DNA of 39,825 nucleotides from assembly GCA_034717415.1 (NCBI GenBank), contig JAYELK010000126.1, positions 1 to 39,825 of the forward strand, read 5' to 3'. The stretch is from Campylobacterota bacterium (GTDB taxonomy: Bacteria > Campylobacterota > Campylobacteria > Campylobacterales > Sulfurimonadaceae). A model generated the notes under the pieces. The model was not told the origin of the DNA. It searched no databases and saw only the letters and a list, made by a program, of their open reading frames with translations. The position numbers were made by a program, and so were the translations under genes. This document shows positions 1-38,041 of the stretch, one piece after another. Each line of letters starts with the position of its first letter. Position 1 is the stretch's first letter.

Positions 1-1115
1 CCACCTCTGCGACCAACGACATCTAAAACTTCTCCACAAAAGTAAAGATTTTTTTGTTTTAGTGATTCCATCGTTTTTGGATTTATCTCAGTAGTATCAA
101 CTCCACCACCACTAACTTCTGCATGTCTAAATCCGTGAGTATCACTTACTTCAAATCTCCAGTTTAACATTTGGTTTGCTATTTTTTTAGATTCTTTTGT
201 ACTTATATTAATCTTGGCATGTGGAATGTTTAATGTTTCTAAAATAGTTCTAGCAATTTTTATAGGTAAAAGAGCATGTAAAATATCTAAAATAGCAATC
301 TTATTTTGAGTCATTTTCAAGATATGAGCAGATAATTTTTGAGCTGTATATTTTGGTAGTAAGTTTATAGATATATCAACTGCTTGATAGTTCATTAAAG
401 ACTCTGAAGCCTCTTGTGAAATATCTAAAATCCCAAAACCAGAGACTCCATAGTTTGTAAATAAAATATCACCTTGGCATGTGGAAGTTTGTTTGTTGTT
501 GATTAAAAGTGTAACTTCACCATCAACTTTTGCTCCACTCATCTTAACACTTAGAGAGTTGGCTAATTGAAGTTGAACTAATGATGGATATGTTGGGATA
601 ATATTGTGTCCACATTCCATAGCAAATTTTTGACCATCACTATTGCCACCCAGATGAGAAGCTGCTTCACTTCCTGTAGCAATAACTACAGCATCATAAT
701 CATTTAGAAGTTTTTTTATATCTGTGATTTTTGTCTCTGTATGAAAATTTACCCCAAGATTTGTAGCATAGTTTATAAAAAGCGAGGCTACACTCTTTGC
801 TTCATTGCTAAGTGGGTAAACTTTTCCATCATCTTTTACTTCAAGAATCAGACCAATACTCAAACAAAATTTTTCAAACTCTTTAAATGAGAAGCTCTCA
901 AGTGCATCTTTAACGAAAGTTGGATTTTCACTAAAATAGTCTTCTTGGCTCGTTGAAATATTTGTAATATTACAACGACCATTACCTGAGACTAAAATTT
1001 TCTTAGCACATTTAGAATTTTGCTCAAAAATATCTACGAGACATGAATTTTTAGCACACTCTATAGCACACAAAAGTCCAGAAGCACCTGCACCGATAAT
1101 AGCTACTCTTTTCAT
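1..1115 (-). CDS. HI0933/YhiN-family NAD(P)/FAD-dependent oxidoreductase (3' end runs off the window)
   Basis: Not in the ORF track; hand translation from ATG at 1115 gives MKRVAIIGAGASG (Rossmann motif), KILVSGNGRCNITN and, near position 1, GGGV...LYFCGEVLDVVGRRG. ATGA overlap with the mutS2 stop. Confidence 0.9.
   Translation of the reverse strand, partial: MKRVAIIGAGASGLLCAIECAKNSCLVDIFEQNSKCAKKILVSGNGRCNITNISTSQEDYFSENPTFVKDALESFSFKEFEKFCLSIGLILEVKDDGKVYPLSNEAKSVASLFINYATNLGVNFHTETKITDIKKLLNDYDAVVIATGSEAASHLGGNSDGQKFAMECGHNIIPTYPSLVQLQLANSLSVKMSGAKVDGEVTLLINNKQTSTCQGDILFTNYGVSGFGILDISQEASESLMNYQAVDISINLLPKYTAQKLSAHILKMTQNKIAILDILHALLPIKIARTILETLNIPHAKINISTKESKKIANQMLNWRFEVSDTHGFRHAEVSGGGVDTTEINPKTMESLKQKNLYFCGEVLDVVGRRG
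213..226 (+). repeat. Dispersed motif CTTGGCATGTGGAA (copy 1)
   Basis: Exact match; read as IPHAK on the minus-strand gene. Confidence 0.9.
473..486 (+). repeat. Dispersed motif CTTGGCATGTGGAA (copy 2)
   Basis: Exact match; read as STCQG on the minus-strand gene. Confidence 0.9.
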
Positions 1116-3331
1116 AGTGTTACAATCTTTGCACCAAAACCACCAAGATGTTGCGGTGCATCGTCAAACTTTTTAACACTTGGATGAGCGATAAGGAAGT
1201 TTTTAACAGCATATGAGAGTTTTCCTGTTCCGATACCGTGATAGATGATAACTTCATCCCAGCCACTTAAAAGAGCATCAGAAAGAAACTTGTCTAAAAC
1301 TTCACATGCTTCATCTGCTCTCATGCCATGAAGGTCGCATTTTAGTCCAGCTTTCTTCTCTACGCTTACTTTTATGTTAGTTTGTGGTTTTGGTTTTATG
1401 ATTTGAGTATGTTTGAGATGTTGTGTTTTTACCCTAACTCTCATCCCTTCCACTTCGATAGTAGCATCTTTTTTATCTCTCATTGAGATTATGACACCTT
1501 TTTGTGAGTGGTATTTTACTTTATCGCCAACTTTGAACTCAACATCTCTTTTTAACTTCTCTTTTTTGCTTTGTGGAAGTTTCTGTTTTGCCTTGTTCAT
1601 CGCTCTGTGTATGGAAGCAGTGTCACCTGATTTGGCAGCTTTTTTAGCTTCATTTATCGCTACGGCATAGCTTGATTTTAGTGCTGCCTTTTGTTCTTCT
1701 AACTCTTTAAATAGACTCTCTTGAAGCTCTTTGAGGTCAAGCTCTTTGGCTTTTAAACTATCTAACTTTTCATCAACTTTTTTATGCTTTTGTTTGAGTT
1801 CACGCTCAAGTTGTGAGCCTCTCTCTATAAGTAGGCTTAGTTTTTCAGAGTTATCGCCATAGACTGATTTTGCTTCATTTACAATCTTGTTAGAAATCCC
1901 ATAACGACTTGCAGTTTCAAAAGCATAACTTTTACCGATGATTCCCTGCATAAACTCATAAGTCGGCATTCTTGCATCTTCATCATAGATAGCAGCCATA
2001 AGTTCAACATCATCTCTATCTGCCATAAGTGCTGCTAGGCGTTTATGGTGAGTTGTAACAACTACTTTTTGACCTCTTTTTATAAGATCATCTAGTATCA
2101 CTTTAAAGAGTGCTGCAGCTTCATCACTATCGGTTCCGAGTTCTATCTCATCTACTCCGACAAGTGCAGATTTATGCTCAAATATACGAGAAAACTCTTG
2201 CATTCTACCAGCAAAGGTTGAGATGTCATTTTTTACATTTTGTGGGTCATCTATAATGGCTAGAACAGTTTTAAATGAGCCAATGTGTGACTTACTCTCA
2301 TTAAGCTTCATAGGTATGATATATTTTGCCATAAAAGCACATGCTAAGATGGATTTTAAAAGCATAGTTTTTCCACCAGCATTTACACCAGTAATCATTA
2401 AAATATTTTTAGAAAAATCAACATTGATAGGTTTTGCTTTGTGAAGAGCAGGGTGGATAAAGTCATTTAAAATTATTTTTGAATCATTTTTAGATTTCAC
2501 TATTTGGTAGTCTTTACTTTTTGCAAATAAAACTCTAGCTTGGTAGTTGTCAAACTTAGTAAACTCTTTATCTATAAAGTTTATAAAGGGTTGTAGTTCT
2601 GTTAATTTTTGAGAGAACTCTTTTGTGTAAGTATAGAAAATTGCCTCTCTTTCTTGTTCTATAAAGCGTATTTTCTCTTTACTTTTTAAGATACTATCTG
2701 GAGATACAAAAAAGAAACCACCACTACTTCTTGCAACCACAGCACCTTTTAGCACATGGTTGAAACCACCACGAACTAAAAGACACTCTTCATCATTTAC
2801 AAGGTGTACTTGAGTATCTACAAGATAACCTGCAAGTTTTGAACTTGACATCATTCTTTTGAGTGAGCCACTCATATTGTTTTTATGCTCTTTAATTCTG
2901 GCGCTCAAGCCAAAGAGAGTCTCATCAAGATTTTCTTCAAATTTGCCGTCATGAGTGAAATACTTTTCTATCTCTAAAAACTTTTCATCAACACTAAATC
3001 TATCCATCCACTCACCGATGATACCATCTAGTTCACGGTTTTTAAAATAGCGAAAATATCTAACAATTTTTACAATCTCAAAAATCTGTTCAAAGTTTAA
3101 AACACCTCGTTTTTTAAGATGTCCTTTTATTGTTGAAAAATCTGCGACTTTTGGAGGTGCTTTAAACTCTATCTTATCAAGTGCTTTTATGTAGCGAAAG
3201 TGGAGTTCTTGGTCACCTTCCATATAGAGAGAACTCTCACGAGAGAAGAGGCTTTTAAAAGAGTTTATATGTTCATTTAAATCTAGTTGGTCTATTAGCA
3301 GTTCTATTTTTGAAGTTTTGTTTTTTTGCAT
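1112..3331 (-). CDS. mutS2: Endonuclease MutS2
   Basis: ITGVNAGGKT Walker A, STFAGRM, VDEIELGTD, TTHH, coiled coil, C-terminal Smr domain (DLHGMR...IYHGIGTG). Confidence 0.96.
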   Translation of the reverse strand: MQKNKTSKIELLIDQLDLNEHINSFKSLFSRESSLYMEGDQELHFRYIKALDKIEFKAPPKVADFSTIKGHLKKRGVLNFEQIFEIVKIVRYFRYFKNRELDGIIGEWMDRFSVDEKFLEIEKYFTHDGKFEENLDETLFGLSARIKEHKNNMSGSLKRMMSSSKLAGYLVDTQVHLVNDEECLLVRGGFNHVLKGAVVARSSGGFFFVSPDSILKSKEKIRFIEQEREAIFYTYTKEFSQKLTELQPFINFIDKEFTKFDNYQARVLFAKSKDYQIVKSKNDSKIILNDFIHPALHKAKPINVDFSKNILMITGVNAGGKTMLLKSILACAFMAKYIIPMKLNESKSHIGSFKTVLAIIDDPQNVKNDISTFAGRMQEFSRIFEHKSALVGVDEIELGTDSDEAAALFKVILDDLIKRGQKVVVTTHHKRLAALMADRDDVELMAAIYDEDARMPTYEFMQGIIGKSYAFETASRYGISNKIVNEAKSVYGDNSEKLSLLIERGSQLERELKQKHKKVDEKLDSLKAKELDLKELQESLFKELEEQKAALKSSYAVAINEAKKAAKSGDTASIHRAMNKAKQKLPQSKKEKLKRDVEFKVGDKVKYHSQKGVIISMRDKKDATIEVEGMRVRVKTQHLKHTQIIKPKPQTNIKVSVEKKAGLKCDLHGMRADEACEVLDKFLSDALLSGWDEVIIYHGIGTGKLSYAVKNFLIAHPSVKKFDDAPQHLGGFGAKIVTL

Positions 3332-3372
3332 TAAAATCTTGTTACGCCTATAATTTATTGATAATTATTTTT

Positions 3373-3396
3373 ATTATAGCATATAAATTGTATAAT
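3373..3396. promoter_or_regulatory. Divergent sigma70-type -10 boxes
   Basis: TATAAT on + at 3391-3396 and on - at 3378-3373 in the AT-rich gap between divergent genes. Confidence 0.5.
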
Positions 3397-3422
3397 GGAT
3401 TTTTTAAAAATAGGAGTCAGAG

Positions 3423-3773: not shown

Positions 3774-4870
3774 TGAGTCTGATAGAACTTTTTAAATTTT
3801 TTATAGAGTCAAAAAGTGAGACTCCTGATGATGGTGGTCTTTTAGATTTTGTAGAGAACTATTTGCCGGATTTTGAAGCTATTCGAGTAGATGTGGAGGA
3901 TGTTAAAAATCTTTTTATCTATAAAAAATTTGGAGAGGGTGATCATCTCTGTTTTGCAGGGCATGTGGATGTAGTTCCGGCAGGTGAGGGATGGGATACA
4001 AATCCTTATAAAGCCATTCAAAAAGATGGTTATATTTATGGTCGTGGTACGCAAGATATGAAGAGTGGTGTTGCTGCTTTTGTTCAAGCTGTTAAAGAGG
4101 TTGAAAATTTCAACGGAACTCTCTCACTTTTACTAACTTCAGATGAAGAGGGTGAAGCTATAAACGGTACTATAAAAGTGCTAGAATATCTAAAAGAGAA
4201 GAGTATGCTTCCACATGCCGTAGTGGTAGCTGAACCGACTTGTGAAGATAGATTTGGTGATGCTATAAAAGTAGGGCGAAGAGGCTCCATAAATGGTTAT
4301 ATCACTTTAAAAGGTAAGCAGGGTCATGCTGCATATCCCCAAAAAGCTATAAATCCCATACATAATCTTTCTCGTGTTTTAGGAGATATGGCAGGGGTAG
4401 ATATAGATGATGGAGATGAGTTTTTTAGTCCAAGTAAGTTTGTGGTAACTGATATTCGTTCAGGAATGCAAGTAACAAATGTAACTCCAAATGAGCTTAA
4501 GATGATGTTCAATGTAAGAAATACCACTCTAACTACGCAAAAAGAGGTTCGAGAGTTTGTAGATAAACATCTTGATGGACTGGATTATGAACTGAAACTC
4601 ACACAAGGCTCATACCCATTTATAACTGACACAGAGACAAAACTTGTTCACAATATAGACTTAGCAATAGAGAGTGTAACAGGTATAAAACCAAAACACT
4701 CAACTGCCGGTGGAACTTCAGATGCAAGGTTTGTTTCGCAGTTTGGTATAGATGTTATAGAGTTCGGTGTTATAAATGATACTATACATGCCATAAATGA
4801 GAGAACAACTACAAAAGAGGTTGAAAATCTTTATAAGGTATTTAAAAAGCTTCTTGGCATGTGGAAATAA
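3773..4870 (+). CDS. dapE: Succinyl-diaminopimelate desuccinylase
   Basis: FAGHVDVVP, YGRGTQDMK, SDEEG, VGRRGS, GKQGHAAYP, GGTSDARF motifs. Confidence 0.95.
   Translation: MSLIELFKFFIESKSETPDDGGLLDFVENYLPDFEAIRVDVEDVKNLFIYKKFGEGDHLCFAGHVDVVPAGEGWDTNPYKAIQKDGYIYGRGTQDMKSGVAAFVQAVKEVENFNGTLSLLLTSDEEGEAINGTIKVLEYLKEKSMLPHAVVVAEPTCEDRFGDAIKVGRRGSINGYITLKGKQGHAAYPQKAINPIHNLSRVLGDMAGVDIDDGDEFFSPSKFVVTDIRSGMQVTNVTPNELKMMFNVRNTTLTTQKEVREFVDKHLDGLDYELKLTQGSYPFITDTETKLVHNIDLAIESVTGIKPKHSTAGGTSDARFVSQFGIDVIEFGVINDTIHAINERTTTKEVENLYKVFKKLLGMWK
4209..4219 (-). repeat. Dispersed motif variant GGCATGTGGAA
   Basis: TTCCACATGCC on +, read as LPHAV in dapE. Confidence 0.75.
4853..4866 (+). repeat. Dispersed motif CTTGGCATGTGGAA
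   Basis: Exact match; encodes the DapE C-terminus LGMWK. Confidence 0.9.
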
Positions 4871-7366: not shown

Positions 7367-8950
7367 ATGTCAAAAGTAATTGGAACAGTAGCGAGTATAG
7401 ATGGTGAATTTTATGCAAAAAGTGTTGATGGTTCTCTTCGTGAAATCAGCAAAGGTGATGAGATTTATGAAGGTGAAACTGTTGTAGGTGACAAAAATAA
7501 CTCCCAACTAGAGAGTATTATAATCTCTATGAGTGACGGTACGGATATTGTTGTTTTAGGCAGTGAATCACAACTTTTTGATGCGTCACTTTTTAGTACA
7601 GAATTTTCAGAAGATGAAACTGTAACGCATAAAGAGTCGGTTATAGCTATGTTAGAAGATTCTGCGAATGTGGATGATGTTGATGAGTTGGAAACTGCTG
7701 GTGGTGAAGATGAACCAGTTGAGTCCAGTGAGGGTGGAGAAGCAAAGTTTGCAACTTCTAATGACAAGAATTTTGATGTAGACATTAATGCAGAACTCAG
7801 AGAAAGAGCTTTTGATAACACAATAGATGATGCTCAAACTCAAGCAACTGTAGCTCAAGCTGAAAACGATTCAGATGATGCAGTATCAGCTCTAAAAGAT
7901 GCAGCAGACTTAGCAGCACAAACAGCAAACACAGCAGTAGCAGCCGCTGAAGCTTCAGCAGATACATTAGCAGATATCGAGAACCTAACACAAGCTCAAA
8001 TAGATGAGACTCAAGGATTAGCAGATGACTTTAGTGGTTTTGGTTATGATTTGGAGATAAAAATTACAAACAATGATACAAACGATTATTTATATCTCGA
8101 TAAAATTAATATGACCAAAACAGCAAATGAAGCAGTAGAGGCAGTAGAAGCTGTAGATGCAGTTGCAGAAAGTTTTGCATATGAAGTAACTCTAAATGCT
8201 GGATTGACGGATACTGATGGAAGTGAATCTTTAAGCTCTATAACTGTAGATAATATTCCAACTGGAGCAACAATAGATGGACTTACAGCAAATGCAGATG
8301 GTAGCTATACAGTTCCTGTTGATGTAAATGGCGATGCTACAGTTACACTTACAAGTTCAACAGAGAAAAGCAATACTGACTTAAATAGTATTCAATCTTC
8401 TATAACTTCTACAGAAAGTGATGGTGGAGAGACTCATACAACAATGGCTCATACTTCTTTAGATGAGAGTAGTGATACAGGAAATGATAGTTATGATGTT
8501 TCAGATGACAACACTATAGATGCTGGTGATGGCAAGGATGCATTTACAGCAGATGCTACCGATATAGCAGACAATGGATTAAGCCTTGATGGTGGTGAAG
8601 GTTTAGATACTCTTATTATGAGTGATGATATGAATATTGACTTTAGTGTCCTTGATGATAATATCGCAAATATGGAAGTGATAGACTTAGGTGCAGGTAC
8701 TCAAAATATCACTTCACTTTCAACTGAAGATGTATTAACTATGACAGATACAGATGATGTACTTCGCATAGATGGGGATAGTGCTGATAGTATTGATTTA
8801 AATACTCAAGGTTCTGATGCAGAGTGGACATTAGGTGACTTTAAAACTGATGCAGAAACAGGTGCAACTTATCAAGAAGTTACAGGTGGAGAGGGTGATG
8901 CTACCGTTACTCTTGAGATTAGTACAGATATTGAAATTCACGAGAGTTAA
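7367..8950 (+). CDS. Retention-module-containing, T1SS-substrate/adhesin-like acidic protein
   Basis: N-terminal LapA-like retention module (VIGTVASIDG...GSLREISKGDEIYEGE), LTDTDGSESLS Ig-like segment, RTX-like IDAGDGKD and LDGGEGLDTL, C-terminal LRIDGDSAD region. Confidence 0.8.
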   Translation: MSKVIGTVASIDGEFYAKSVDGSLREISKGDEIYEGETVVGDKNNSQLESIIISMSDGTDIVVLGSESQLFDASLFSTEFSEDETVTHKESVIAMLEDSANVDDVDELETAGGEDEPVESSEGGEAKFATSNDKNFDVDINAELRERAFDNTIDDAQTQATVAQAENDSDDAVSALKDAADLAAQTANTAVAAAEASADTLADIENLTQAQIDETQGLADDFSGFGYDLEIKITNNDTNDYLYLDKINMTKTANEAVEAVEAVDAVAESFAYEVTLNAGLTDTDGSESLSSITVDNIPTGATIDGLTANADGSYTVPVDVNGDATVTLTSSTEKSNTDLNSIQSSITSTESDGGETHTTMAHTSLDESSDTGNDSYDVSDDNTIDAGDGKDAFTADATDIADNGLSLDGGEGLDTLIMSDDMNIDFSVLDDNIANMEVIDLGAGTQNITSLSTEDVLTMTDTDDVLRIDGDSADSIDLNTQGSDAEWTLGDFKTDAETGATYQEVTGGEGDATVTLEISTDIEIHES

Positions 8951-8956
8951 TCTAAT

Positions 8957-8986
8957 CTTGGCATGTGGATTGGTTTCACATGCCAA
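8957..8986 (+). terminator. Hairpin made of an inverted pair of the dispersed motif
   Basis: TTGGCATGTGGA-ttggt-TTCACATGCCAA, 12-bp stem with one G-U pair, starting 7 nt after the stop codon; no strong U-tract. Confidence 0.7.
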
Positions 8987-9034
8987 AGAGTAGATCCCAA
9001 CTTCATATTAATCATCTATTAAGCCAAAAAAATA

Positions 9035-10905: not shown

Positions 10906-11654
10906 TAAGAACAATTTTAGCTTTTGTAGCTTTAGCAGTTAGTCTGAGTGCAGCAGAGATATATGCGACTTTTAATATCCAAGCAGATAAAAGTGCAGAT
11001 TTAGCCTTTTACTCTAGTGGAATTATAGAGAAAATTTTTGTAGATACTTCAAGTGTTGTAAAAAAAGGCGATAAGTTAGCCCAACTCAACAATGATGACC
11101 TAAAAGCTTCTCTTTTGATTGCTAAAGCTTCTTTACAAAATACAGAGATAATTTTAAAATTTGCAAAAAAAGATTATGAGAGACAGTTACTGATAAAAGA
11201 CCTGATAGATGAAGCAAAGTTTGACCAATATAAATTGAGTTACGAAAAAGCAAAAGTAGCAACTATCCAAGCAGAAGCAAATCTGGCTTATCAGCAATCA
11301 CTTTTAGATAGAAGTGTGATTTTGGCTCCTTTTGATGGTGTGATTTTTGAAAAAAGTGCAGAAGTCGGAGATGTAGTAAGTGGTCTAATGCTTAGAACAA
11401 TTTTTAAGATTCAAAGCCTAAATAAGAGAGATTTGATTTTAGAGTTTGACCAGAAATATTGGAGAGTAGTCAGAGTCGGGGATAAAGTCAGATACACGGT
11501 AAACGGGGATGACAACAGCTATAAAGGTAAAATCTCTAAACTATATCCACATGCTAACAGTGATAACAGAAAGATAAAAGCCGAGGTAGAGGCAGAAGGT
11601 TTTGTAGTTGGTCTTTTTGGTGAGGGGTATATAATCGTACCTGATAAAAGGTAG
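10902..11654 (+). CDS. RND efflux periplasmic adaptor (MFP)
   Basis: SGIIEKI...VKKGDKLAQL and ILAPFDGVI lipoyl halves around an alpha-helical hairpin. Confidence 0.9.
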   Translation: MIRTILAFVALAVSLSAAEIYATFNIQADKSADLAFYSSGIIEKIFVDTSSVVKKGDKLAQLNNDDLKASLLIAKASLQNTEIILKFAKKDYERQLLIKDLIDEAKFDQYKLSYEKAKVATIQAEANLAYQQSLLDRSVILAPFDGVIFEKSAEVGDVVSGLMLRTIFKIQSLNKRDLILEFDQKYWRVVRVGDKVRYTVNGDDNSYKGKISKLYPHANSDNRKIKAEVEAEGFVVGLFGEGYIIVPDKR

Positions 11655-16769: not shown

Positions 16770-17540
16770 ATGAGACGAGTTGTAGTTAAGGTTGGTAGTG
16801 CTGTTTTAACTCAAAATGATGAAATTGCATTAGAGAGAATGCAGTCTTTAGTTGATTTTTTGGCAGAACTTAAAAAATCAAATGAAGTTATTTTAGTTTC
16901 TTCTGGTGCCGTTGCAGGTGGATACACAAAGCTGAAACTTGATAGAACTATTCTTAAAAACAAACAGGCACTAGCAGCTATTGGACAGCCGGTTCTTCTT
17001 AAGAAGTATGACAGAAAATTCTTAAAACATAATATTTTAGTTTCACAAGTATTGGTAACTGCTGCGAATTTGAATAAACTTGATGATATTGTAAGAGTTA
17101 AAAATACAATAGATACACTTTTAGAAAATGGTGTAATTCCTATCATAAATGAAAATGATGCAACATCAACAGATGAACTTGAACTTGGAGACAATGATCA
17201 ACTTTCAGCATACATAGCAAAACATAGTGATTCAGATATACTAATAATTCTTTCAGATATTGATGGATATTATGACCATGATCCAAGAACAAATCCACAT
17301 GCCAAGATATTAAAAGTTATAAATAGCATTGATGAAGCAGAACTTGAAAAAGAGGTCACTCCAAATAATGTTTTCGCAACGGGTGGAATAGTTACAAAAC
17401 TTAAAGCAGCCGATTATCTCTTGGCATGTGGAAAAAGCATGTTTTTAGCAAGTGGTTTTGATTTGAGTGATGTGAAAAGTTTTATGCTAGATAGTAAACA
17501 TTTAGGTGGAACTCTGTTTAAAAAGGCTAATAAACAGTGA
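16770..17540 (+). CDS. proB: Glutamate 5-kinase (no PUA domain)
   Basis: VVKVGS, VSSGAV, INEND, GDNDQLSA, TGGIVTK. Confidence 0.95.
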   Translation: MRRVVVKVGSAVLTQNDEIALERMQSLVDFLAELKKSNEVILVSSGAVAGGYTKLKLDRTILKNKQALAAIGQPVLLKKYDRKFLKHNILVSQVLVTAANLNKLDDIVRVKNTIDTLLENGVIPIINENDATSTDELELGDNDQLSAYIAKHSDSDILIILSDIDGYYDHDPRTNPHAKILKVINSIDEAELEKEVTPNNVFATGGIVTKLKAADYLLACGKSMFLASGFDLSDVKSFMLDSKHLGGTLFKKANKQ

Positions 17541-18516
17541 AAATAATATTTATGGGTACACCCGATTATGCAGAGGCAATACTGCAACGAATTATAGATA
17601 CAAAAGATATGGAAGTAGTTGCAGTTTATACCCAGCCAGATAGGTCGGTTGGTAGAAAAAAGCTTATGACCCCACCGGTTGTTAAGACCTTGGCATGTGA
17701 AAATGAGATAGTTGTTTATCAACCAAATAGAGTTCGTGATAGTGAAGTAGTTCAAGAACTTTTAAAAATTGAGTGTGATTATATAGTCGTTGCAGCTTAT
17801 GGGCAGATTCTTCCACAAGAGATTTTAAATCACGCTCCATGTATCAATCTTCATGCCAGTATCTTGCCACAATATCGTGGAGCAAGTCCGATACAGCAAA
17901 CTCTTCTAAATGATGATAAGAAGACAGGTGTAACTGCTATGCTTATGGATATAGGACTTGATACAGGAGATATTCTTAAAATTGAGACTATAGAAGTTAG
18001 TGCCGATGAGATGGTTGAGACTCTCTTTGATAGATTGACTACTACGGCATGTGATTTGACTATTGATGTTTTGCAAAATTTTATCTCTTACTCTCCAAAA
18101 CCACAAATTGATTCTCTTTGTTCACATTGTTCTAAAATAACAAAAGCAGATGGTGAAGTTGCATTTCTCAATGCAAAAGAGCTTTACAATAAGTATAGAG
18201 CATTTACTCCTTGGCCTGGAACCTATCTAAAAAGTGGTTTGAAACTTAAAAAAATAAAACTAGAAGATAGCTCAAGTTCCAATAATATTGGGCAAATTTT
18301 AAAGATTGAAGATAAGAGTATAGTAGTTGGATGTAGTGAAGGTAGTCTAAGAATTTTTAGTGTTCAGGCACCATCTAAAAAAGAGATAGATATACTCTCT
18401 TATATAAATGGAAAGAGACTTGAACATGAAGATTACCTATCTTGAAACTATCGATTCAACTCAAATATATTTAAAAAAGTTACTACAAGATAAAAACCTT
18501 GAACTTCCACATGCCA
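17294..18516. repeat. Cluster of five dispersed-motif copies
   Basis: 17294-17306 (-), 17420-17433 (+), 17689-17702 (+), 18046-18054 (+), 18505-18516 (-). Confidence 0.88.
17537..18445 (+). CDS. fmt: Methionyl-tRNA formyltransferase
   Basis: IFMGTP, TQPDR, INLHASILPQYRGASPI, GLDTGD. Confidence 0.97.
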   Translation: MKIIFMGTPDYAEAILQRIIDTKDMEVVAVYTQPDRSVGRKKLMTPPVVKTLACENEIVVYQPNRVRDSEVVQELLKIECDYIVVAAYGQILPQEILNHAPCINLHASILPQYRGASPIQQTLLNDDKKTGVTAMLMDIGLDTGDILKIETIEVSADEMVETLFDRLTTTACDLTIDVLQNFISYSPKPQIDSLCSHCSKITKADGEVAFLNAKELYNKYRAFTPWPGTYLKSGLKLKKIKLEDSSSSNNIGQILKIEDKSIVVGCSEGSLRIFSVQAPSKKEIDILSYINGKRLEHEDYLS

Positions 18517-19061
18517 TAGTTGCAAAGACTCAAACTGATGGCATAGGAAGTAGAGGAAATTCATGGAGTGGTATGGATGGAAATCTTTTTTTATCTTTTG
18601 CAACTTCTTTAGACTCTCTGCCAAAAGATTTGAAATTAGAATCTACCTCTATATATTTTGCATATCTTCTAAAAGAGATGTTAAGTGAGTTAAATTCATC
18701 TACTTGGCTAAAGTGGCCAAATGATTTCTATATTGGTGATGTAAAAATAGGTGGAATGATTACAAACATAGTTGGCACTACTCTTGTTTGTGGTGTTGGG
18801 TTAAATTTGGTTAATTCTCCAAAAGAGTTTACAACACTAGATATAAAAATTTCCAAAGATGAGTTGCTGGAAAAATATTTTAATAAAATTGAAAAAAAAG
18901 TTTCATGGAAGCAAGTTTTTAGTAAATATAAGTTAGAATTTTACCGAAACCAAAATTTTTTTACATATAAAAATAGTTTAAGAATTTCATTAGATAGTGC
19001 CACACTTCAGAGTGACGGTTCTATTATAAATAACGGCGAAAGGATATATAGTCTAAGATGA
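18426..19061 (+). CDS. birA: Biotin--[acetyl-CoA carboxylase] ligase (no N-terminal HTH)
   Basis: DSTQ, QTDGIGSRGNSW, LKWPND, KIGG; start moved to ATG 18426 (MKITYLE) to shorten the fmt overlap. Confidence 0.92.
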   Translation: MKITYLETIDSTQIYLKKLLQDKNLELPHAIVAKTQTDGIGSRGNSWSGMDGNLFLSFATSLDSLPKDLKLESTSIYFAYLLKEMLSELNSSTWLKWPNDFYIGDVKIGGMITNIVGTTLVCGVGLNLVNSPKEFTTLDIKISKDELLEKYFNKIEKKVSWKQVFSKYKLEFYRNQNFFTYKNSLRISLDSATLQSDGSIINNGERIYSLR

Positions 19062-20682: not shown

Positions 20683-20779
20683 CATTAACAAAACTACACA
20701 GTTTTTACATTTATCTATAAAAAAATAAATTTTTTATATAATTTTTACTACTTTAACTATCCTTTCAATTTTATCGTTG

Positions 20780-20785
20780 TATAAT
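20780..20785 (+). promoter_or_regulatory. -10 box of the atp operon promoter
   Basis: TATAAT upstream of the AGGAGG RBS of atpF'. Confidence 0.55.
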
Positions 20786-20807
20786 CACGCAACTTTTAGG
20801 AGGTGCT

Positions 20808-21230: not shown

Positions 21231-21239
21231 GGATGTGAT

Positions 21240-21758: not shown

Positions 21759-21759
21759 C

Positions 21760-22293: not shown

Positions 22294-22317
22294 CTTTTAA
22301 CGAGAGGAGAACAGATA

Positions 22318-23835
22318 GTGGTAGCAAAAATTCAAGCTGATGAAATCAGCTCAATAATTAAAGAGCGTATCGATAACTTTGAACTGAGTGTTGATATTAA
22401 TGAAACTGGTAAAATTGTTTCTTATGCTGATGGTGTTGCACAAGTTTATGGACTTAGCGATGTTATGGCTGGAGAGATGGTAGAGTTCGAAGATGGGACT
22501 CAAGGTTTAGTAATGAACCTTGAAGAGAGCGCTGTAGGTGTTGTTATTCTTGGAGCAGGTACAGAACTTAGAGAGGGTATGAGTGTTAAAAGACTTGGTA
22601 AGCTTCTTAAAGTGCCTGTTGGTGATGCACTTTTAGGTCGCGTTGTAAATGCACTTGGTGAGCCTATTGACGGTAAAGGTCCAATCGAAACAACAGAAAC
22701 TCGTTTTGTTGAAGAGAAAGCACCTGGTATTATGGATAGAAAATCTGTTCATGAGCCATTATCAACCGGTATTAAAGCTATTGATGCACTTGTGCCAATT
22801 GGTAGAGGTCAAAGAGAACTTATTATTGGTGACAGACAAACTGGTAAAACTACAGTTGCAATCGATGCAATCATTAACCAAAAAGGTAATGGCGTTGTTT
22901 GTATCTATGTTGCTGTTGGTCAAAAAGAGTCAACTGTTGCTCAAATTGTTCGTTGTTTAGAAGAGCATGGTGCAATGGAATATACAATTATTGTATCTTC
23001 ATGTGCTTCTGAAGCCGTGGCACTTCAATTTTTAGCTCCATATACTGGTGTTACTATGGGTGAATACTTCCGTGATAACGCTAGACATGGTCTGATTGTT
23101 TATGATGATTTAACTAAACATGCAGTTGCATATCGTGAAATGTCACTTATTCTTCGTCGTCCTCCGGGTCGTGAAGCATATCCTGGTGATGTTTTCTATA
23201 TTCATTCTCGTCTTTTAGAGAGAGCTGCAAAAGTTTCTGATGAGTTAGGTGGTGGTTCTTTAACTGCTCTCCCAATTATTGAGACTCAAGAGGGTGATGT
23301 TGCGGCATATATCCCAACTAATGTTATCTCGATTACTGATGGTCAGATTTTCCTTGAGACTGAACTGTTTAACTCAGGTGTTCGTCCAGCGATTAATGTT
23401 GGTCTTTCAGTTTCTCGTGTTGGTGGTGCTGCTCAGATTAAAGCTACTAAGCAAGTTGCCGGTACACTAAGACTTGACCTTGCTCAGTATCGTGAACTTC
23501 AAGCATTTGCTCAGTTTGCATCTGACCTTGATGAAACATCTCGTAATCAACTAGAGCGTGGACAAAGAATGGTAGAAGTTCTAAAACAAGGACCTTTCTC
23601 TCCACTATCTGCTGAGAAGCAAGTTGCTATTATTTTTGCTGGTAATGAAGGTTTCTTGGATGATATGGACGCATCAAATGTTGTTCGTTTTGAAGCTGAA
23701 ATGTATCCATTTATTGAAGCATCTTATCCTCAAATTTTCGAGAATATTAGAAGTACTTCTAAAGTAGATGATGATACTAAGGCATTGATGATCAAAGCAC
23801 TTGAAGAATTCAAAGCTAGCTTTGTAGTAGCATAA
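22318..23835 (+). CDS. atpA: ATP synthase alpha subunit
   Basis: [20 protein letters not shown]. Confidence 0.98.
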
Positions 23836-23845
23836 GGGAATCGTT

Positions 23846-26139
<2,294 letters not shown>

Positions 26140-26155
26140 TTCATAAAGGACTGAA

Positions 26156-26548
26156 ATGGATAAGCTAAAACTTGAAATCCTAACTCCTAATGGCGAAATC
26201 TTTAATGATGATGTTATTAGTGTAGTTCTCCCCGGTGAAGAGGGAGAATTCGGTGTTCTTGCTCATCATGCTTCTCTATCTACTTTGTTAGAAGCTGGTG
26301 TAATTGATATCGAAAAAGAAGATAAATCAGTCGAGTCTATTTTAATCAATTGGGGCGTAGTCCATGTTGATGAAGAGAAAGTTATTGTTTTGGTAGAGGG
26401 TGCTGTAGCTATCCGTGGTGATAGTGAAAGTGCAATTGCTAAGGAACTTGAAGATGCTAAGGAACTTATTAAAGATATTGCTGATTCAGGTTCTGCAATA
26501 GCTACTGTTTCTGCAAAAATAGAGACAGCTGCTCAAAAATTACTCTAA
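26156..26548 (+). CDS. atpC: ATP synthase epsilon subunit
   Basis: LEILTP, PGEEGEFGVLAHH. Confidence 0.96.
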   Translation: MDKLKLEILTPNGEIFNDDVISVVLPGEEGEFGVLAHHASLSTLLEAGVIDIEKEDKSVESILINWGVVHVDEEKVIVLVEGAVAIRGDSESAIAKELEDAKELIKDIADSGSAIATVSAKIETAAQKLL

Positions 26549-26551
26549 AAT

Positions 26552-27118
26552 ATGACTAACGATTTAATAGATTTTTATCTAAAAAGTCATCCGGTTACTT
26601 TGGGTGTATTGGCTCTTTTGTCGGTATATTTTATCGTTTTAAACTGGGTGTTTTTTTATCGCTACTTTTCTATAAACGGTTGGCTTTTTAAAGAAAATAA
26701 ATCTTTAGAAGCGCTGTTAATGGGATCCTCAACTGTTAATGAAAACTCTTTTTTAAATAATTTTATTAAAACTAGTTCAAATATTTCTAAAGAAGTTTTA
26801 GGTCTTGGAATGTTAGCTGCTACAAAAGAGGCAACAAAAGGTCTCTCGCTTCTTTCTATTTTTGCATCAACCACACCTTTTATAGGACTTTTTGGTACGG
26901 TAGTATCTATTTTGGATACATTTACCCATATTGGTAAAAGTAGTGGAAGTATGTCTATCATATCTAGTGGTGTTTCTGATGCTTTAGTGGCGACTGCTGC
27001 TGGTATATTTGTAGCAATTTTTGCATATACATATCACCAAATTCTAAAAAGAAAATCATTTGAGTTAATTAGTTTTATGCAGATGCAAAGTGATGCTATT
27101 TTAGCAAGAAGAGTTTAG
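26552..27118 (+). CDS. tolQ: MotA/TolQ/ExbB proton channel
   Basis: TPFIGLFGTV, ALVATAAG; upstream of tolB-pal. Confidence 0.85.
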   Translation: MTNDLIDFYLKSHPVTLGVLALLSVYFIVLNWVFFYRYFSINGWLFKENKSLEALLMGSSTVNENSFLNNFIKTSSNISKEVLGLGMLAATKEATKGLSLLSIFASTTPFIGLFGTVVSILDTFTHIGKSSGSMSIISSGVSDALVATAAGIFVAIFAYTYHQILKRKSFELISFMQMQSDAILARRV

Positions 27119-27121
27119 TTA

Positions 27122-27514
27122 ATGCTCTATGACTGGGATGATAAACCTGAGTTAAATATTACTCCTCTTGTGGATGTTATGCTAGTTTTACTAGCTATTT
27201 TGATGGTTATTGCTCCAAATATTGTCTTTGAGGAGAGTATTAAACTTCCTCAAGGCTCAACTTCACAACAACTCTCTAAAATTCCTCCTGTACATATTAC
27301 AGTTGATAGAGAAATGAATGTTAAAATAAACAAAGACAATTATTCACTTCATGAATTCATGGATAATTTTTTTCTTTATTCTAAAAAATTAGATCTTAAA
27401 GCTACTGTACTTATCAGTGCAGATAAATCTTTGGATTATGGTGTTGTTATGTCGGTATTAGCCGCAGTAAAACAAGCAGGTTTTAGTGAGGTATCACTAG
27501 CAACAAATGGTTAG
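27122..27514 (+). CDS. tolR: ExbD/TolR family protein
   Basis: LNITPLVDVMLVLL, ADKSLDYG. Confidence 0.85.
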   Translation: MLYDWDDKPELNITPLVDVMLVLLAILMVIAPNIVFEESIKLPQGSTSQQLSKIPPVHITVDREMNVKINKDNYSLHEFMDNFFLYSKKLDLKATVLISADKSLDYGVVMSVLAAVKQAGFSEVSLATNG

Positions 27515-28226
27515 AAATAGCTCCTATTTTTACATAAGTGGTTTAATCTCTTTATCACTTTTTGTGTTTTTCCTAGTACTTTTTTTTTATATGATGTTTT
27601 CATCAAATGGAGTTAAATCATATGCTCTTAAAAAAGACAACTACATATCAGTATCAATTAATATGTCTAATCTAAACACTAAAAGCTATAAAAAAAATAT
27701 TTCAAAAAAAAAGAATGAAAATGTTGTTACAACACCTAAAGAGGTAAATATTGATAATCTTTTTAGTGATGTATGGACAAAAAAAATAGATAAAAAAACG
27801 ATTAAAAAAAAGAAAAGTGATATTAGACAACTCCATGAGATAGAAAAAAAAGTTAAAACTATCCAAAATAACGATCTAAGTGAAATTTCTGATAAAATTA
27901 ATAAAATCCAAGCTAGCACTCAAAGTGATGAAAATATTCCTTCATCTACATCTAATGAAGTTAATGAATATTTTGCTAAAATTCAAGCCTTAGTTTATAA
28001 CTCTTTTAAACCACCACAAAACTCACAAGGACATAGTGTAAAAGCTGTTATAGAGCTTAGTGCTATAGGTAAAGTTATGGATTTTAGGATTTTAAATTAT
28101 TCAGTAAATAGTAGTTTAAATGATGAGTGTGACAAAATAAAAGCTAGATTGATGGGTGTAATATTTCCAATGAATCCACAAAACAGATCTAGTTATCATA
28201 CAATTATATTAATATCAGAGGAGTAG
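27507..28226 (+). CDS. TolA/TonB C-terminal-domain protein
   Basis: N-terminal TM anchor, Lys-rich linker, TonB_C-like C-terminus; lies between tolR and tolB. Confidence 0.8.
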   Translation: MVRNSSYFYISGLISLSLFVFFLVLFFYMMFSSNGVKSYALKKDNYISVSINMSNLNTKSYKKNISKKKNENVVTTPKEVNIDNLFSDVWTKKIDKKTIKKKKSDIRQLHEIEKKVKTIQNNDLSEISDKINKIQASTQSDENIPSSTSNEVNEYFAKIQALVYNSFKPPQNSQGHSVKAVIELSAIGKVMDFRILNYSVNSSLNDECDKIKARLMGVIFPMNPQNRSSYHTIILISEE

Positions 28227-28229
28227 TTT

Positions 28230-29480
28230 TTGAAAATATTTTTTTTAAGTTTAATTCTTTTTACTTTATCGTTCGCTAATGATGCAACGATTGAGGTTAT
28301 AAAAAAAGTTGATTCATTGCCAACCATTGCAGTGGAGGATTCATCGATAAGTTATGATGATACATTTAGGTTAAAGTTTTTTAAAACAGTTATAGCTGAT
28401 TTAAATGTTATTTCACTTTTTAATGTAGATAGACACCAGCGTATAACACACTTTAATGATAGTAGCGTAGTAGTACAAAACAAAGATATGAATTATGTTT
28501 TAAGATATAAACTATTTGAAGATGATAGTGGTGCTTTGAATGTTGAGACTAAACTTATAAGCAGTGAAAAAGATGTTTTAATAAAAAACTATAAGATTAA
28601 TAATAAAAATGTTTATATGTTTGTTTCACATGCCATAGCGTATGATATTAATGAATTTATGGGTTCTCCATCAGTTGAATGGATGAAAAGAAAAGTAATA
28701 TTTAGCAGAGTTGTTAGCCCAAAAAAGAGTGAAATTGTAATAGCTGATTATACTTTATCTTATCAACACATTGTTATAAAAGGTGGATTTAATATATTTC
28801 CTAAATGGGCAAATAAAGAGCAGAATCAGTTTTACTATACATCGTTAGACGCTAAAAAACCAACACTTAAGCATGTAGATATAAGAACAGCAAAGAGTAG
28901 AAATGTCTTATCTTCTGATGGCATGATGATCTGTTCTGATGTAAGTGACGACTCTAAAAAACTACTTTTAACAATGGCTCCCAAAGGGCAACCGGATATT
29001 TATCTTTATGGAGTTGATTCAAAAAGATATAAGAGAGTAACAAAGCTCAGTGGTATTGATGTAAGTGGTCAGTTTATGAATGACAATACTATAGTTTTTG
29101 TCTCAGGCAGATTGGGATATCCTAATATTTTCTCTAAAAAAATTGGAAGTAATAGTGTAGAGCAGATGGTTTATTATGGTAAAAGCAATGCAGCATGTAG
29201 TGCTAGGGGTGAATATATAGTTTATAAAGCTAGAGAGACTTCGAATGCATTTTCAAAAAATACATTTAATTTACACCTTATCTCTACAAAAACAGACTTT
29301 ATTAGAAGACTTACAGCAACAGGTATAAATGAATTTCCAAGATTTTCAAAAGATGGAGATGCTATACTTTTTATAAAAAATTATAAAGCTCAAAGTTCTT
29401 TGGGTATTATAAGACTTAATCATAACAAAAATTATCTTTTTCCACTTAAATATGGAAAAATACAATCTATGGATTGGTAG
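28230..29480 (+). CDS. tolB: Tol-Pal system protein TolB
   Basis: Signal peptide, beta-propeller repeats (FVSGRLGYPNI, PRFSKDG); precedes pal. Confidence 0.92.
   Translation: MKIFFLSLILFTLSFANDATIEVIKKVDSLPTIAVEDSSISYDDTFRLKFFKTVIADLNVISLFNVDRHQRITHFNDSSVVVQNKDMNYVLRYKLFEDDSGALNVETKLISSEKDVLIKNYKINNKNVYMFVSHAIAYDINEFMGSPSVEWMKRKVIFSRVVSPKKSEIVIADYTLSYQHIVIKGGFNIFPKWANKEQNQFYYTSLDAKKPTLKHVDIRTAKSRNVLSSDGMMICSDVSDDSKKLLLTMAPKGQPDIYLYGVDSKRYKRVTKLSGIDVSGQFMNDNTIVFVSGRLGYPNIFSKKIGSNSVEQMVYYGKSNAACSARGEYIVYKARETSNAFSKNTFNLHLISTKTDFIRRLTATGINEFPRFSKDGDAILFIKNYKAQSSLGIIRLNHNKNYLFPLKYGKIQSMDW
28624..28635 (-). repeat. Dispersed motif variant TGGCATGTGAAA
   Basis: TTTCACATGCCA on +, read as VSHAI in tolB. 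Confidence 0.7.
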
Positions 29481-32400: not shown

Positions 32401-33342
32401 ATGTCAAAAAAAATAGCGATGATCTTTTCAGGTCAAGGTTCTCAAGCAGTAGGAATGGGCAGAGACTTTTATGAAGCTAGCGAAGTAGCAAGAGAGATGT
32501 TTCTTAAAGCTGGTGAGAGAATTGGTGTTGATTTCAAAGAATTAATCTTTGAAGAGAATGAGAAATTAGGTCAAACTGCTTTCACTCAACCTGCAATTTT
32601 ATTAGTACAAATGGTAGCTTATAAGCTTTTTAAAGATGCTTGTCCAGATCTCAAAGCAGAACTATTTTTAGGTCACTCACTTGGTGAGTTTTCTGCATTG
32701 TGTGCAAGTGGTGCTATTGATTATATTGATGCAGTTGAACTTGTTCATAAGCGTGGGTCATTTATGCAGTCGGCATGTGAAGAAATAGAAGCAGGAATGA
32801 TGGCTATTGTTGGTCTTGATGATGAGTCTGTAGAAAAAATTTGTACCCAAGCTCAATCAGAAGGTAAAAAAGTTTGGCCTGCAAACTATAATCAAGATGG
32901 TCAGTTAGTTGTAGCTGGAATGAAAAGTGATTTAGTTTCATTAGAGCAATCATTTAAAGATGCCGGTGCCAAAAGAGCTTTGCTTTTAAATATGTCAGTT
33001 GCATCTCACTGTGAGATACTGGCTCCGGCACAAGAGCCTTTAGTAGAGTTAATGTTCTCTATGGTTAAGGATGAGTTTGAAGCTCCTATCATATCTAATG
33101 TTACGACAAAACCTTACAATACAAAAGATAAGGCAGTAGCACTTTTAAAAGATCAGTTAGTTAAACCTGTAAAATATAAACAATCTATCTTAGCAATAGC
33201 TGGTGATGTTGATATAGCTATTGAGTTTGGTAATGGAGTAGTTTTAAAAGGTCTTAATCGTAGAATTGCAAAAGATTTAAAAACATTAAATATATCAGAT
33301 ATGGCATCTTTAGCAAAAGTTCAAGAGGAAGTTTGCAGTTAA
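32401..33342 (+). CDS. fabD: Malonyl CoA-ACP transacylase
   Basis: FSGQGSQ, TQPAI, GHSLGE, ASHC. Confidence 0.96.
   Translation: MSKKIAMIFSGQGSQAVGMGRDFYEASEVAREMFLKAGERIGVDFKELIFEENEKLGQTAFTQPAILLVQMVAYKLFKDACPDLKAELFLGHSLGEFSALCASGAIDYIDAVELVHKRGSFMQSACEEIEAGMMAIVGLDDESVEKICTQAQSEGKKVWPANYNQDGQLVVAGMKSDLVSLEQSFKDAGAKRALLLNMSVASHCEILAPAQEPLVELMFSMVKDEFEAPIISNVTTKPYNTKDKAVALLKDQLVKPVKYKQSILAIAGDVDIAIEFGNGVVLKGLNRRIAKDLKTLNISDMASLAKVQEEVCS
32772..32781 (+). repeat. Dispersed motif core GGCATGTGAA
   Basis: Read as SACE in fabD. Confidence 0.6.
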
Positions 33343-33343
33343 G

Positions 33344-34060
33344 ATGAGAGTAACACTGGTTCAAAGTTCACCAAAATTAAATCGTTCTAATTTGCTTGAT
33401 ATTATTGAAACTGTAAGCAGATATAAAGATAGTAGTGATTTGATTGTATTTCCGGAACTCTCTTTGAACGGTTATCTGCTTCAAGATAAACTCTATGAAG
33501 ATGCTTGGGGATTAGATGAACTAAATGAGTTAAAAGAGCTTAGTTGTCATGTGGATATTGTTGTAGGTGCAGCAATTAAAGATTCTAAAGTATTTAGAAA
33601 TGCAGCTCTCTATTTTTCACAAGGTAAATTGCTTAGTCAACATAACAAAGTGCATCTACCAAATTATGGTATGTTTGAAGAGGCTCGTTACTTTTGTGCC
33701 GGTAGTGTGTTTGAAGGTTTTGATACTCGTCATGGAAAGATTTCTATGCTTGTTTGTGAAGATTTATGGCATGCTGGAGTGCATCATCAGCTTTTTGATG
33801 AAAATCCTGATTATATTATTGCGCTTGTTGCTTCTCCAGCTCGTGGTTTTGATGATGATGGCTTATTGATAGAAGAGCAGTGGCATGCACTTCTAAAATC
33901 AGTTGCTCTGCATTGTGATGCTAAGGTTGTTTTTGTAAATCGTGTAGGTTTTGAGGATGGTCTTGGTTTTTGGGGTGGAAGTTGTATAGTTGATAAAAAT
34001 GCAAAGATTTTAGAGAAACTGCCACATTATGAAACTCTAGTAAAAACATTTGAAATATAG
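33344..34060 (+). CDS. Carbon-nitrogen hydrolase (nitrilase superfamily)
   Basis: VFPEL, KVHLPNYGMFEEARYF, VCEDLW catalytic triad context; resembles a stand-alone NAD synthetase glutaminase domain. Confidence 0.9.
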   Translation: MRVTLVQSSPKLNRSNLLDIIETVSRYKDSSDLIVFPELSLNGYLLQDKLYEDAWGLDELNELKELSCHVDIVVGAAIKDSKVFRNAALYFSQGKLLSQHNKVHLPNYGMFEEARYFCAGSVFEGFDTRHGKISMLVCEDLWHAGVHHQLFDENPDYIIALVASPARGFDDDGLLIEEQWHALLKSVALHCDAKVVFVNRVGFEDGLGFWGGSCIVDKNAKILEKLPHYETLVKTFEI

Positions 34061-36280: not shown

Positions 36281-36367
36281 ATATACCTCTAAAATTAATT
36301 ATTTACTAATACTTATATGCTATTATACATTTTTGAATTTAAAATATAGTTTTATAGGTGTAAAAAA

Positions 36368-36715: not shown

Positions 36716-36725
36716 GGAGAAAATT

Positions 36726-37436: not shown

Positions 37437-37447
37437 GCTTATATATT

Positions 37448-37461
37448 CTTGGCATGTGGAA
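37448..37461 (+). repeat. Dispersed motif CTTGGCATGTGGAA (intergenic)
   Basis: Exact match in the 29-nt yebC-yigZ gap. Confidence 0.9.
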
Positions 37462-37465
37462 ATAG

Positions 37466-38041
37466 ATGAAGTTTGTAGATAAATATTACTCCCAAACATT
37501 AGAGATAAAGCAGTCTAAATTTATAGCTCATGCAGTTGCATATAGTATCTATGATAAAACACTTAAAGAGTTAAAAGAGACTCATCCAAAAGCCAGACAT
37601 TTTATTGTGGCATATAGGTATCTAAATGAGTTTAATCAAATTGTAGAACACTCTAGTGATGATGGAGAACCAAAAGGAACTTCCGGTAAGCCGACACTGA
37701 TGGTACTTCAAGGTAGAGATATAATAAATAGTGCTATTATTACTGTTAGATATTTTGGTGGTACTAAACTTGGTACTGGTGGTCTTGTCCGTGCTTATAG
37801 TGATGCTGCAAATTTAGTTTTTCAATCAGCTGTTTTAAAAGAGTATAAGCAAGAATTTTTTAAAACTATTATTTTTAATTATACTAATCTTAGAAGAGTA
37901 GAGTATGAATGTTTGGCATGTGGAGTTGAAATTATCGAAAAAGTTTTTAATGACAAAACTCAATATAGACTAAAATCAGATGAAAACAGTATGAAAAAGT
38001 TTTTGTCTAAAATTGACAGAATGGTAAATGTGATAGAGTAG
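37466..38041 (+). CDS. yigZ: YigZ/IMPACT family protein
   Basis: IKQSKFIA, SDDGEPKGTSGKP, VRYFGGTKLGTGGLVRAY. Confidence 0.95.
   Translation: MKFVDKYYSQTLEIKQSKFIAHAVAYSIYDKTLKELKETHPKARHFIVAYRYLNEFNQIVEHSSDDGEPKGTSGKPTLMVLQGRDIINSAIITVRYFGGTKLGTGGLVRAYSDAANLVFQSAVLKEYKQEFFKTIIFNYTNLRRVEYECLACGVEIIEKVFNDKTQYRLKSDENSMKKFLSKIDRMVNVIE
37913..37924 (+). repeat. Dispersed motif TTGGCATGTGGA
   Basis: Exact match; read as LACG in yigZ. Confidence 0.88.

Follow-up and report, generated by a model that had tools for sequence, protein, structure and literature searches.

A dispersed DNA word in Sulfurimonas genomes as a candidate DNA-uptake signal

Why does one short word recur on both strands of a bacterial chromosome, mostly within genes? 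The question is raised by a stretch of 39,825 nucleotides (the window) from a Campylobacterota bacterium of the Sulfurimonadaceae (contig JAYELK010000126.1), in which a sequence-only reading had noted 16 copies of the core GGCATGTG and suggested a DNA-uptake sequence. The genome from which the window comes (G000, the source genome; 1.80 Mb, 179 contigs, 33.5% GC) is, to judge from its proteins, a Sulfurimonas: the nearest named relatives of its Fmt protein are from Sulfurimonas assemblies (75–81%), and one member of its Fmt cluster bears that name. We found the motif (CT)TGGCATGTGGAA scattered over ∼600 chromosomal places, a lineage-specific signature that point substitutions have produced. 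It probably is a DNA-uptake signal, a 'self' label on the DNA of relatives, that accumulated by biased uptake, with an origin independent of the DNA uptake sequence (DUS) of Neisseriaceae and the uptake signal sequence (USS) of Pasteurellaceae.

The core is present 600 times in the source genome, compared with 11.4 copies expected from a third-order Markov model, and with both Markov orders the most over-represented word at each of k = 8, 9, 10, and 12 belongs to the motif. The consensus derived from the flanks reads (T)CTTGGCATGTGGAAAT; further out, the flanks carry no information. TGGCATGTGGA occurs 290 times and has common single variants (...GTGAA, 99 copies; ...GTAGA, 63 copies; and TAGC..., 29 copies), and variants altered within GCATGT are rare (≤10 copies each). 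Fifteen of the 600 cores belong to a single tandem array of the full 16-base consensus on contig C9 (∼8360–8710); they flank an assembly gap, and the array has a flagellar rod gene on one side and a gene for a small secreted protein on the other. Same-strand motif pairs 16 bases apart also appear among the matches listed for another genome (G083).

Most copies lie in genes. Using home-made gene calls (1841 open reading frames (ORFs), 92.1% coding) and setting aside 50 copies with a same-strand neighbor within 60 bases, we obtained a set of 550 dispersed copies, 482 of which lie in genes and occupy all six frames (204, 143, 42, 41, 28, and 24 copies). The 518 in-gene copies compare with 76.7 after synonymous shuffling (maximum 87) and 13.9 after shuffling of the codon order (20 shuffles each). 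The difference between the two null models indicates that the proteins themselves are bent by the motif. Indeed, the tripeptides of all six frames are enriched 3.5–9.1-fold in the source genome (PHA, 177 versus 19.5 expected; WHV, 38 versus 4.4; HMP, 47 versus 7.8; TCQ, 42 versus 6.9; GMW, 29 versus 5.7; and LAC, 108 versus 30.9), whereas reversed controls reach 0.9–2.1-fold.

Codon alignments show how the sites came about. In a second carrier genome (G191), the motif is kept at 34 of 55 orthologous sites. The residues of non-carriers at motif sites show an amino acid identity of 0.48–0.57, compared with 0.73–0.77 overall, and alignment gaps occur in 3 of 244 orthologous site comparisons. The low residue identity together with the near-absence of gaps indicates that the sites arose by substitution at permissive positions and not by insertion. 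Thus, the force behind the motif acts on the DNA sequence and suffices for His, Cys, and Trp to become fixed at permissive positions.

These alignments and the codon-shuffle nulls refute an origin as the remnant of a mobile repeat (repetitive extragenic palindrome (REP) or miniature inverted-repeat transposable element (MITE)) or as an artifact of codon usage, amino acid usage, or assembly, an explanation to which we assign a negligible probability. The tandem array and a separate MITE-like family in the source genome would fit such an origin, but in contrast to REP and MITE sequences the motif is mostly genic (the 482 dispersed copies in coding frames), is not inserted with indels, and has no longer conserved unit, its conserved flanks stopping at ∼16 bases. 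It also exceeds the codon nulls 7- to 37-fold and is found in 24 other assemblies. The separate family, which resembles a MITE or insertion sequence, carries terminal GGAATTATTTGG at 40 ends on 28 contigs, often ∼147 bases apart or near contig ends.

Within the window, all 16 previously noted cores are in place (11 on the + strand and 5 on the − strand), and the estimate of less than one chance copy was sound (0.48 expected; maximum of three in 100 shuffles). The count of ten full 12-mers is likewise correct (ten exact copies of TTGGCATGTGRA), and 15 12-mers are found at ≤1 mismatch, compared with 0.52 expected. Four further sites had been given as one-mismatch relatives; this holds at the level of the 12-mer for 11546(−) and 33544(+), whereas 609(−) and 2338(−) differ from the 12-mer at two positions and from the 8-mer core at one. 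Thirteen of the cores lie within genes and three are intergenic. The gene names dapE, proB, birA, tolB, fabD, yebC, flavoprotein, efflux adaptor, and hydrolase are those that we presume from the sequence. The copies are as follows.

214..225, + strand: exact 12-mer, antisense in a flavoprotein gene, encoding Pro-His-Ala
474..485, + strand: exact 12-mer in the same flavoprotein gene, encoding Ser-Thr-Cys-Gln
3960..3967, + strand: core alone in a dapE-like gene, Gly-His-Val
4212..4219, − strand: core in the dapE-like gene, Pro-His-Ala
4785..4792, − strand: common variant core GGCATGTA in the dapE-like gene, absent from the earlier list
4854..4865, + strand: exact 12-mer in the final codons of the dapE-like gene, Gly-Met-Trp-Lys-stop
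8958..8986, both orientations: inverted pair of two exact 12-mers, beginning 7 bases past the stop codon of ORF 7367–8950
11546..11557, − strand: one-mismatch 12-mer in an efflux adaptor gene, Pro-His-Ala
17294..17305, − strand: exact 12-mer in a proB-like gene, Asn-Pro-His-Ala-Lys
17421..17432, + strand: exact 12-mer in the proB-like gene, Leu-Ala-Cys-Gly
17690..17701, + strand: exact 12-mer in fmt, Leu-Ala-Cys; core common to 8 of 8 motif-rich loci
18046..18053, + strand: core in fmt, Thr-Ala-Cys
18506..18517, − strand: one-mismatch 12-mer in a birA-like gene, Pro-His-Ala; core common to 7 of 8 motif-rich loci
28625..28636, − strand: one-mismatch 12-mer in a tolB-like gene, Ser-His-Ala
32770..32781, + strand: one-mismatch 12-mer in a fabD-like gene, Ser-Ala-Cys
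33544..33555, + strand: one-mismatch 12-mer in a carbon-nitrogen hydrolase-like gene, Cys-His-Val
37449..37460, + strand: single exact 12-mer, intergenic, between yebC-like and UPF0029 genes
37913..37924, + strand: exact 12-mer in the UPF0029 (YigZ-type) gene, Leu-Ala-Cys-Gly

A 10-kb stretch of the window (18516–28626), which spans parA, parB, ATP synthase, and tol genes, contains no core.

Four window genes hold the motif at the same alignment columns in 6–8 of the 7–8 motif-rich loci. The column at 17294..17305 has it in all seven motif-rich loci that cover it, and the CATG column at 17421..17432 has it in six of seven. At all four shared columns, the exact motif is gone from locus L032, which groups as sister to the carrier loci L011 and L028 (support 1.0). 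NPHAK has become NQDAK, LACG has become LSFG, and LACA has become LASG, whereas PHA is kept with a silent change, so that His or Cys is replaced at three of the four. Two further loci placed among carriers (L009 and L005) are without the motif at all four columns. The losses in these three loci therefore indicate that the motif is actively maintained and decays once the force lapses, unless their placements in the tree (FastTree, with a weakly supported backbone) are wrong. A single origin followed by losses and a spread between clades may both fit this backbone. ORFs that the source genome and G191 share at 55–85% identity carry 6.9 copies per 10 kb, those that are ≥85% identical carry 2.2, and unshared ORFs carry 3.2.

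The motif shows no strong strand polarity. In the source genome, the copies split 259:214 by the skew orientation of contigs (P = 0.04) and 235:222 by total skew; in G191, 312 cores in skewed samples split 150:162. A 15-mer splits 68:72, with mixed orientation on either side of dnaA among the matches listed (100 of 140 places). Apparent runs of + strand copies in long lists of matches proved to be an effect of the listing order. Chi and FtsK-orienting polar sequences (KOPS), which are likewise asymmetric, G/T-rich, and present in hundreds of copies, have a strong leading-strand polarity; in contrast, the motif splits 55:45 and 48:52 between replichores. KOPS-like words (GGGNAGGG and GGTGAGGG) are skewed in the same strand test (e.g. 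25:8).

Acquired DNA is poor in the motif. A prophage contig of the source genome (C45) carries no copy in 21.2 kb (6.9 expected, P = 0.001), and a conjugative element in G191 carries 6 copies in 140 kb, compared with 413 in the other 640 kb sampled. Except for this element, no origin or terminus domain is spared on the four large G191 contigs, all of which were covered. A 158-kb motif gap near the skew switch of G191 contig C1 was considered as an exclusion from the terminus but is the conjugative element itself, both flanks having normal density. The force behind the motif therefore disregards strand and chromosomal domain, extends only slowly to acquired DNA, and can be switched from one lineage to another. 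The element (∼240–378 kb of C1) is an integrative conjugative element (ICE) with integrase-like, partition, conjugation, and defense-like genes, and contig C45 represents the structural module of a prophage. Another contig of the source genome (C174) holds an ORF that we take to be Cas9-like from its sequence.

How widely is the word distributed? We counted copies of TGGCATGTGRA per genome. Among 194 genomes of the genus, 13 carry 230–1059 copies, 12 carry 40–126, and 169 carry ≤16. Outside the genus, each of 288 genomes has ≤6 copies, and 48 genomes of family f23, whose DnaA cluster is named Sulfurospirillum, have ≤7.

Other Sulfurimonas carry the related palindromes TTACATGTAA and CTACATGTAG. 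In 440 kb of the complete genome G061, TACATGTA is found 138 times (7.0 expected) and occurs in all 22 samples around the chromosome; the CTACATGTAG-type palindrome is present in G073 and G066. TTACATGTA has 210–1599 forward matches in 23 of 31 f23 genomes, is likewise raised in another genus of the Sulfurimonadaceae (three of three genomes), and does not exceed 21 per strand in any of 237 genomes from the other families. For the Sulfurospirillaceae, these are word counts, complemented by samples of the dnaA region only.

The asymmetric and palindromic forms share (C)ATGT(G/A)(G/A)A, and a single proB column, the one at 17421..17432, holds the asymmetric form in six loci and the palindrome in five loci of another clade. 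Genome-wide, the coincidence is modest: columns with a shared CATG hold the palindrome at 17 of 61 motif sites, compared with 36 of 273 matched controls (P = 0.01), with an odds ratio of 2.5 that is overstated because three related genomes were pooled. From the shared bases and the shared proB column, common descent of the two forms is likely.

Three genomes carry both forms moderately (asymmetric and palindromic matches: G198, 40 and 143; G161, 49 and 39; and G175, 15 and 131) and are possible cases of a dialect switch in progress. Genome G075 (L139, L159, and L341–L346) has a different over-represented word, TGCGTGAG(G), with 20 copies versus 1.1 expected in 40 kb and 38 copies in 160 kb on both strands, possibly another independent signature. 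Single samples of 14–20 kb (L020; L051; L012 and L035) yielded the candidate words TTGGGATGTA (TACATCCC, 8 versus 0.6), CGGTGAGGGG (8 versus 0.0), and TTATCGATA; words of the TAGATGCA type in several genomes were discarded as signatures, being low-fold and probably codon effects.

The palindromes bring in a different explanation, namely that the word is the site of a chromosome-organizing or repair protein (nucleoid-associated or Noc/SlmA/MatP-like) and is retained through selection for a chromosomal function. The symmetry of the sister forms would hint at a dimeric protein, the half TTYCAC is similar to the parS half-site (CACGTG is absent from the source genome), and the array on C9 repeats the full consensus every 16 bases. 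However, sites of the parS, Noc, MatP, or SlmA type are palindromic, few, and tied to or excluded from one chromosomal domain, whereas the motif is asymmetric, abundant, and not restricted to a domain. In G191 no domain but the conjugative element is spared, the palindrome is in every G061 sample, and spacing is slightly clumped rather than even (coefficient of variation, 1.08 versus 0.95 ± 0.05). Hundreds to thousands of sites also exceed the counts known for such proteins, and close relatives live without the motif. ParB has similar recognition helices in carriers and non-carriers, and separate parS-like palindromes are present, leaving a link to parS and ParB unsupported. We therefore regard a chromosome-protein site as quite unlikely, although it would account for much of the pattern. 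ACGT is nearly absent from the source genome and G191 (0.02 and 0.09 of expected) and stands at ∼0.8 in three palindrome carriers; the parS-like sites on contig C129 avoid it.

Because both main forms contain CATG, the word might instead be the target of a DNA methyltransferase (with a CATG- or RCATGY-type core), methylation being the actual signal. A precedent exists within the order: according to the accessible part of PMC10046745, uptake in Campylobacter jejuni depends on methylated RAATTY. The search covered four Pfam families, and draft genomes may hide genes. PF02086 and PF01555 are unmatched in the source genome, and the complete genome G061, which has the palindromic form, is unmatched by PF02086, PF01555, and PF00145. 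A fused PF02384 enzyme of the source genome has a close orthologue in 1 of the 12 other rich carriers. Furthermore, CATG is under-represented (0.71), RAATTY words are not enriched, and the form in sample L020 has GATG in place of CATG. A methyltransferase target thus appears very improbable.

Inverted pairs at gene ends are a further trait. When the variant GGCATGTA is counted, 46 of 91 intergenic copies form 23 inverted pairs. Of 26 close inverted pairs (∼4 expected), 23 are intergenic, and all 23 lie ≤40 bases past a stop codon. In the window, the pair at 8958..8986 folds as a hairpin (−26.3 kcal/mol for 8940–9010, z = −5.1) that no T-run follows. Across 24 hairpin pairs, 10 lie between convergent genes and 4 have a T-rich tail, so that the likeness to paired uptake sequences in terminators drawn by the sequence-only reading stands for the position at gene ends, whereas the pairs are no more than possible terminators. 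A metagenome scan for inverted pairs gave 95 loci, most of them with Sulfurimonas-like genes where flanks were present. A viral scan for the pairs gave none; for a 15-mer it gave 42 single matches, none in a low-GC, motif-rich contig. The plasmid search returned no close relative.

As far as the available portions of the literature reach (PMC3630211, PMC2817400, PMC7371117, and PMC2397512), each trait of the motif that we compared has its match in DUS or USS. Like these, the motif is a 10–16-base non-palindromic word in hundreds to ∼1000 copies on both strands, sits at permissive coding positions with inflated tripeptides and in inverted pairs at gene ends, is scarce in acquired DNA and ICEs, and has lineage-specific dialects. 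Unlike these, it is patchy within one genus with repeated loss, its sister forms are palindromic, and its hairpins mostly lack a T-tail. Its own sequence is unrelated, its carriers belong to another phylum, and no match to the family of ComP, the DUS reader, was found (the control being silent as well). The motif agrees with DUS and USS in every genomic trait with a clear result, yet is a member of neither family.

Candidate machinery for uptake is encoded in the source genome, where we found a secretin operon, ComEC, a small ComE-like protein, DprA- and ComM-like ORFs (by regular expression), and eight pilin-like genes. Two genes lie at the end of the window.

38053..39297, − strand: T2SSF/PilC-type platform gene (PF00482, 2e-51), positional counterpart of Campylobacter ctsF
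39294..39825, − strand: 3′ part of a T2SSE/PilB-type ATPase gene (PF00437, 5e-48)

Contig C159, which overlaps the end of the window, terminates in the 5′ part of the ATPase gene and the secretin operon, so that the operon runs into the ATPase and platform genes of the window. ComEC is present in 116 of 118 genus genomes. One pilin gene of the source genome precedes priA, a position like that of the C. jejuni uptake protein Cj0683; homology to Cj0683 was sought and not shown. In the accessible text of PMC10046745, Cj0683 lies before priA and is essential for the initiation of uptake. The source genome thus shares with C. jejuni the order and the type of uptake machine (secretin, ATPase, platform, ComEC, and a pilin before priA). 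In contrast to the methylated RAATTY read with the Cts system, its signal would be a longer asymmetric word.

A FimU-like minor pilin is found in 170 of 201 genomes of the order; its model has a predicted local distance difference test score (pLDDT) of 89 and a weak likeness to FimU/EpsH (E = 0.03). Its gene (C106 176–841 in the source genome, and orthologues) is the immediate neighbor of an rRNA operon in 18 of 20 genomes sampled, which explains its position at contig ends in drafts. The conjugative element of G191 carries its own copy.

In the mechanism that we favor, a putative surface reader, i.e. a competence pilus or secretin, would bind the word and so raise the frequency with which fragments that bear it enter the cell and recombine. 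Any new perfect copy would then spread through the population without benefit to the gene that holds it (molecular drive). The related forms TTACATGTAA, CTACATGTAG, and perhaps TTGGGATGTA would stem from slight alterations of the reader, and sites would erode wherever the preference was lost. A bias at uptake, with homologous recombination as the next step, would create a force with all the properties described above and would require no benefit per site.

Several observations weigh against an uptake signal. The tree of the FimU-like pilin does not follow the form of the motif, nor do the pilins before priA track it, and the gene content around comEC and the FimU-like pilin in 20 genomes revealed no gene confined to carriers. 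The ComP family (PF16732) was matched in none of five genomes, although the positive control was silent as well. The three competence operon genes checked hold no copy, the literature search gave no report of competence in these genera, and the 169 genomes with few copies nearly all have ComEC. T-rich tails are scarce, and palindromic sister forms are unlike any DUS or USS. Finally, most of the traits listed are also expected from any sequence-biased step inside the cell. The earlier suggestion of an uptake signal is partly supported: it agrees with every genomic check that it named, whereas a ComP-like receptor was not found.

Such a step inside the cell would be a bias after entry, in which the word spreads by the same drive but is recognized in the periplasm or cytoplasm and shields the DNA that has come in, or favors its recombination, in the manner of HIP1 (highly iterated palindrome 1, GCGATCGC, of cyanobacteria) or of a non-polar Chi. 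Every signature of drive fits this explanation equally well, and the surface pilins show no correspondence with the motif. The palindromic sister forms are HIP1-like, and 23 of 31 Sulfurospirillaceae genomes contain 200–1600 matches to them on each strand. The polarity that Chi needs is absent. In the accessible text of bioRxiv 2024.09.10.611283, HIP1 raises transformation partly via homology-dependent recombination. Its strong effect needs methylation, however, and no methyltransferase of the four Pfam families searched tracks the motif. Overall, we consider a bias after entry unlikely.

Like the motif, HIP1 is a highly iterated short word that overrides codon choice, and TTACATGTAA and CTACATGTAG are palindromes at a density similar to or above that of HIP1. 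The main motif, in contrast, is not palindromic (symmetrized versions of its two arms occur 0 and 6 times), no cognate methyltransferase among the four Pfam families tracks it, and its copies are clumped, whereas a quasi-periodic spacing is given for HIP1 in the part of PMC3868556 that was available. A role of HIP1 in transformation has been proposed (PMC13756078 and bioRxiv 2024.09.10.611283, both available in part; further comparison papers, also in part, are PMC8897410, PMC8865925, and PMC12616744). The palindromic relatives tie the motif as much to HIP1 as to DUS.

We tentatively put forward a wider reading, which may well not hold: a third independent sequence-specific uptake system in sulfur-cycling Campylobacterota. 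Its dialects would range from the DUS-like TTGGCATGTGGA in part of Sulfurimonas to the HIP1-like palindromes TTACATGTAA and CTACATGTAG in other Sulfurimonas and most Sulfurospirillaceae. They would be read without methylation by a putative receptor of a Campylobacter-type competence machine and would have been gained, switched, and lost repeatedly within one genus. If so, uptake sequences and highly iterated palindromes would be one phenomenon.

Sequence-specific uptake signals are established in two bacterial families only, and the cause of HIP1-type accumulation is an open question. A description of the motif was not found among the listed hits of the literature searches, with most subscription papers, and supplementary files with possible genome-wide word surveys, lying outside their reach. 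A single genus here holds rich, intermediate, and non-carriers next to palindromic dialects, and sister lineages have reverted amino acids that the motif had forced. The genus is thus a natural experiment on molecular drive, protein cost, and decay and offers a comparative-genomics route to the receptor. An uptake role, if true, would provide a handle for transforming important sulfur and hydrogen oxidizers and a marker for foreign DNA in their genomes.

The source genome also encodes a ComEA-type helix-hairpin-helix domain fused to a membrane segment (C104 10666–11259, L182). We take this segment to be MotA/ZorA-like and the product of the next gene to be OmpA/MotB-like.

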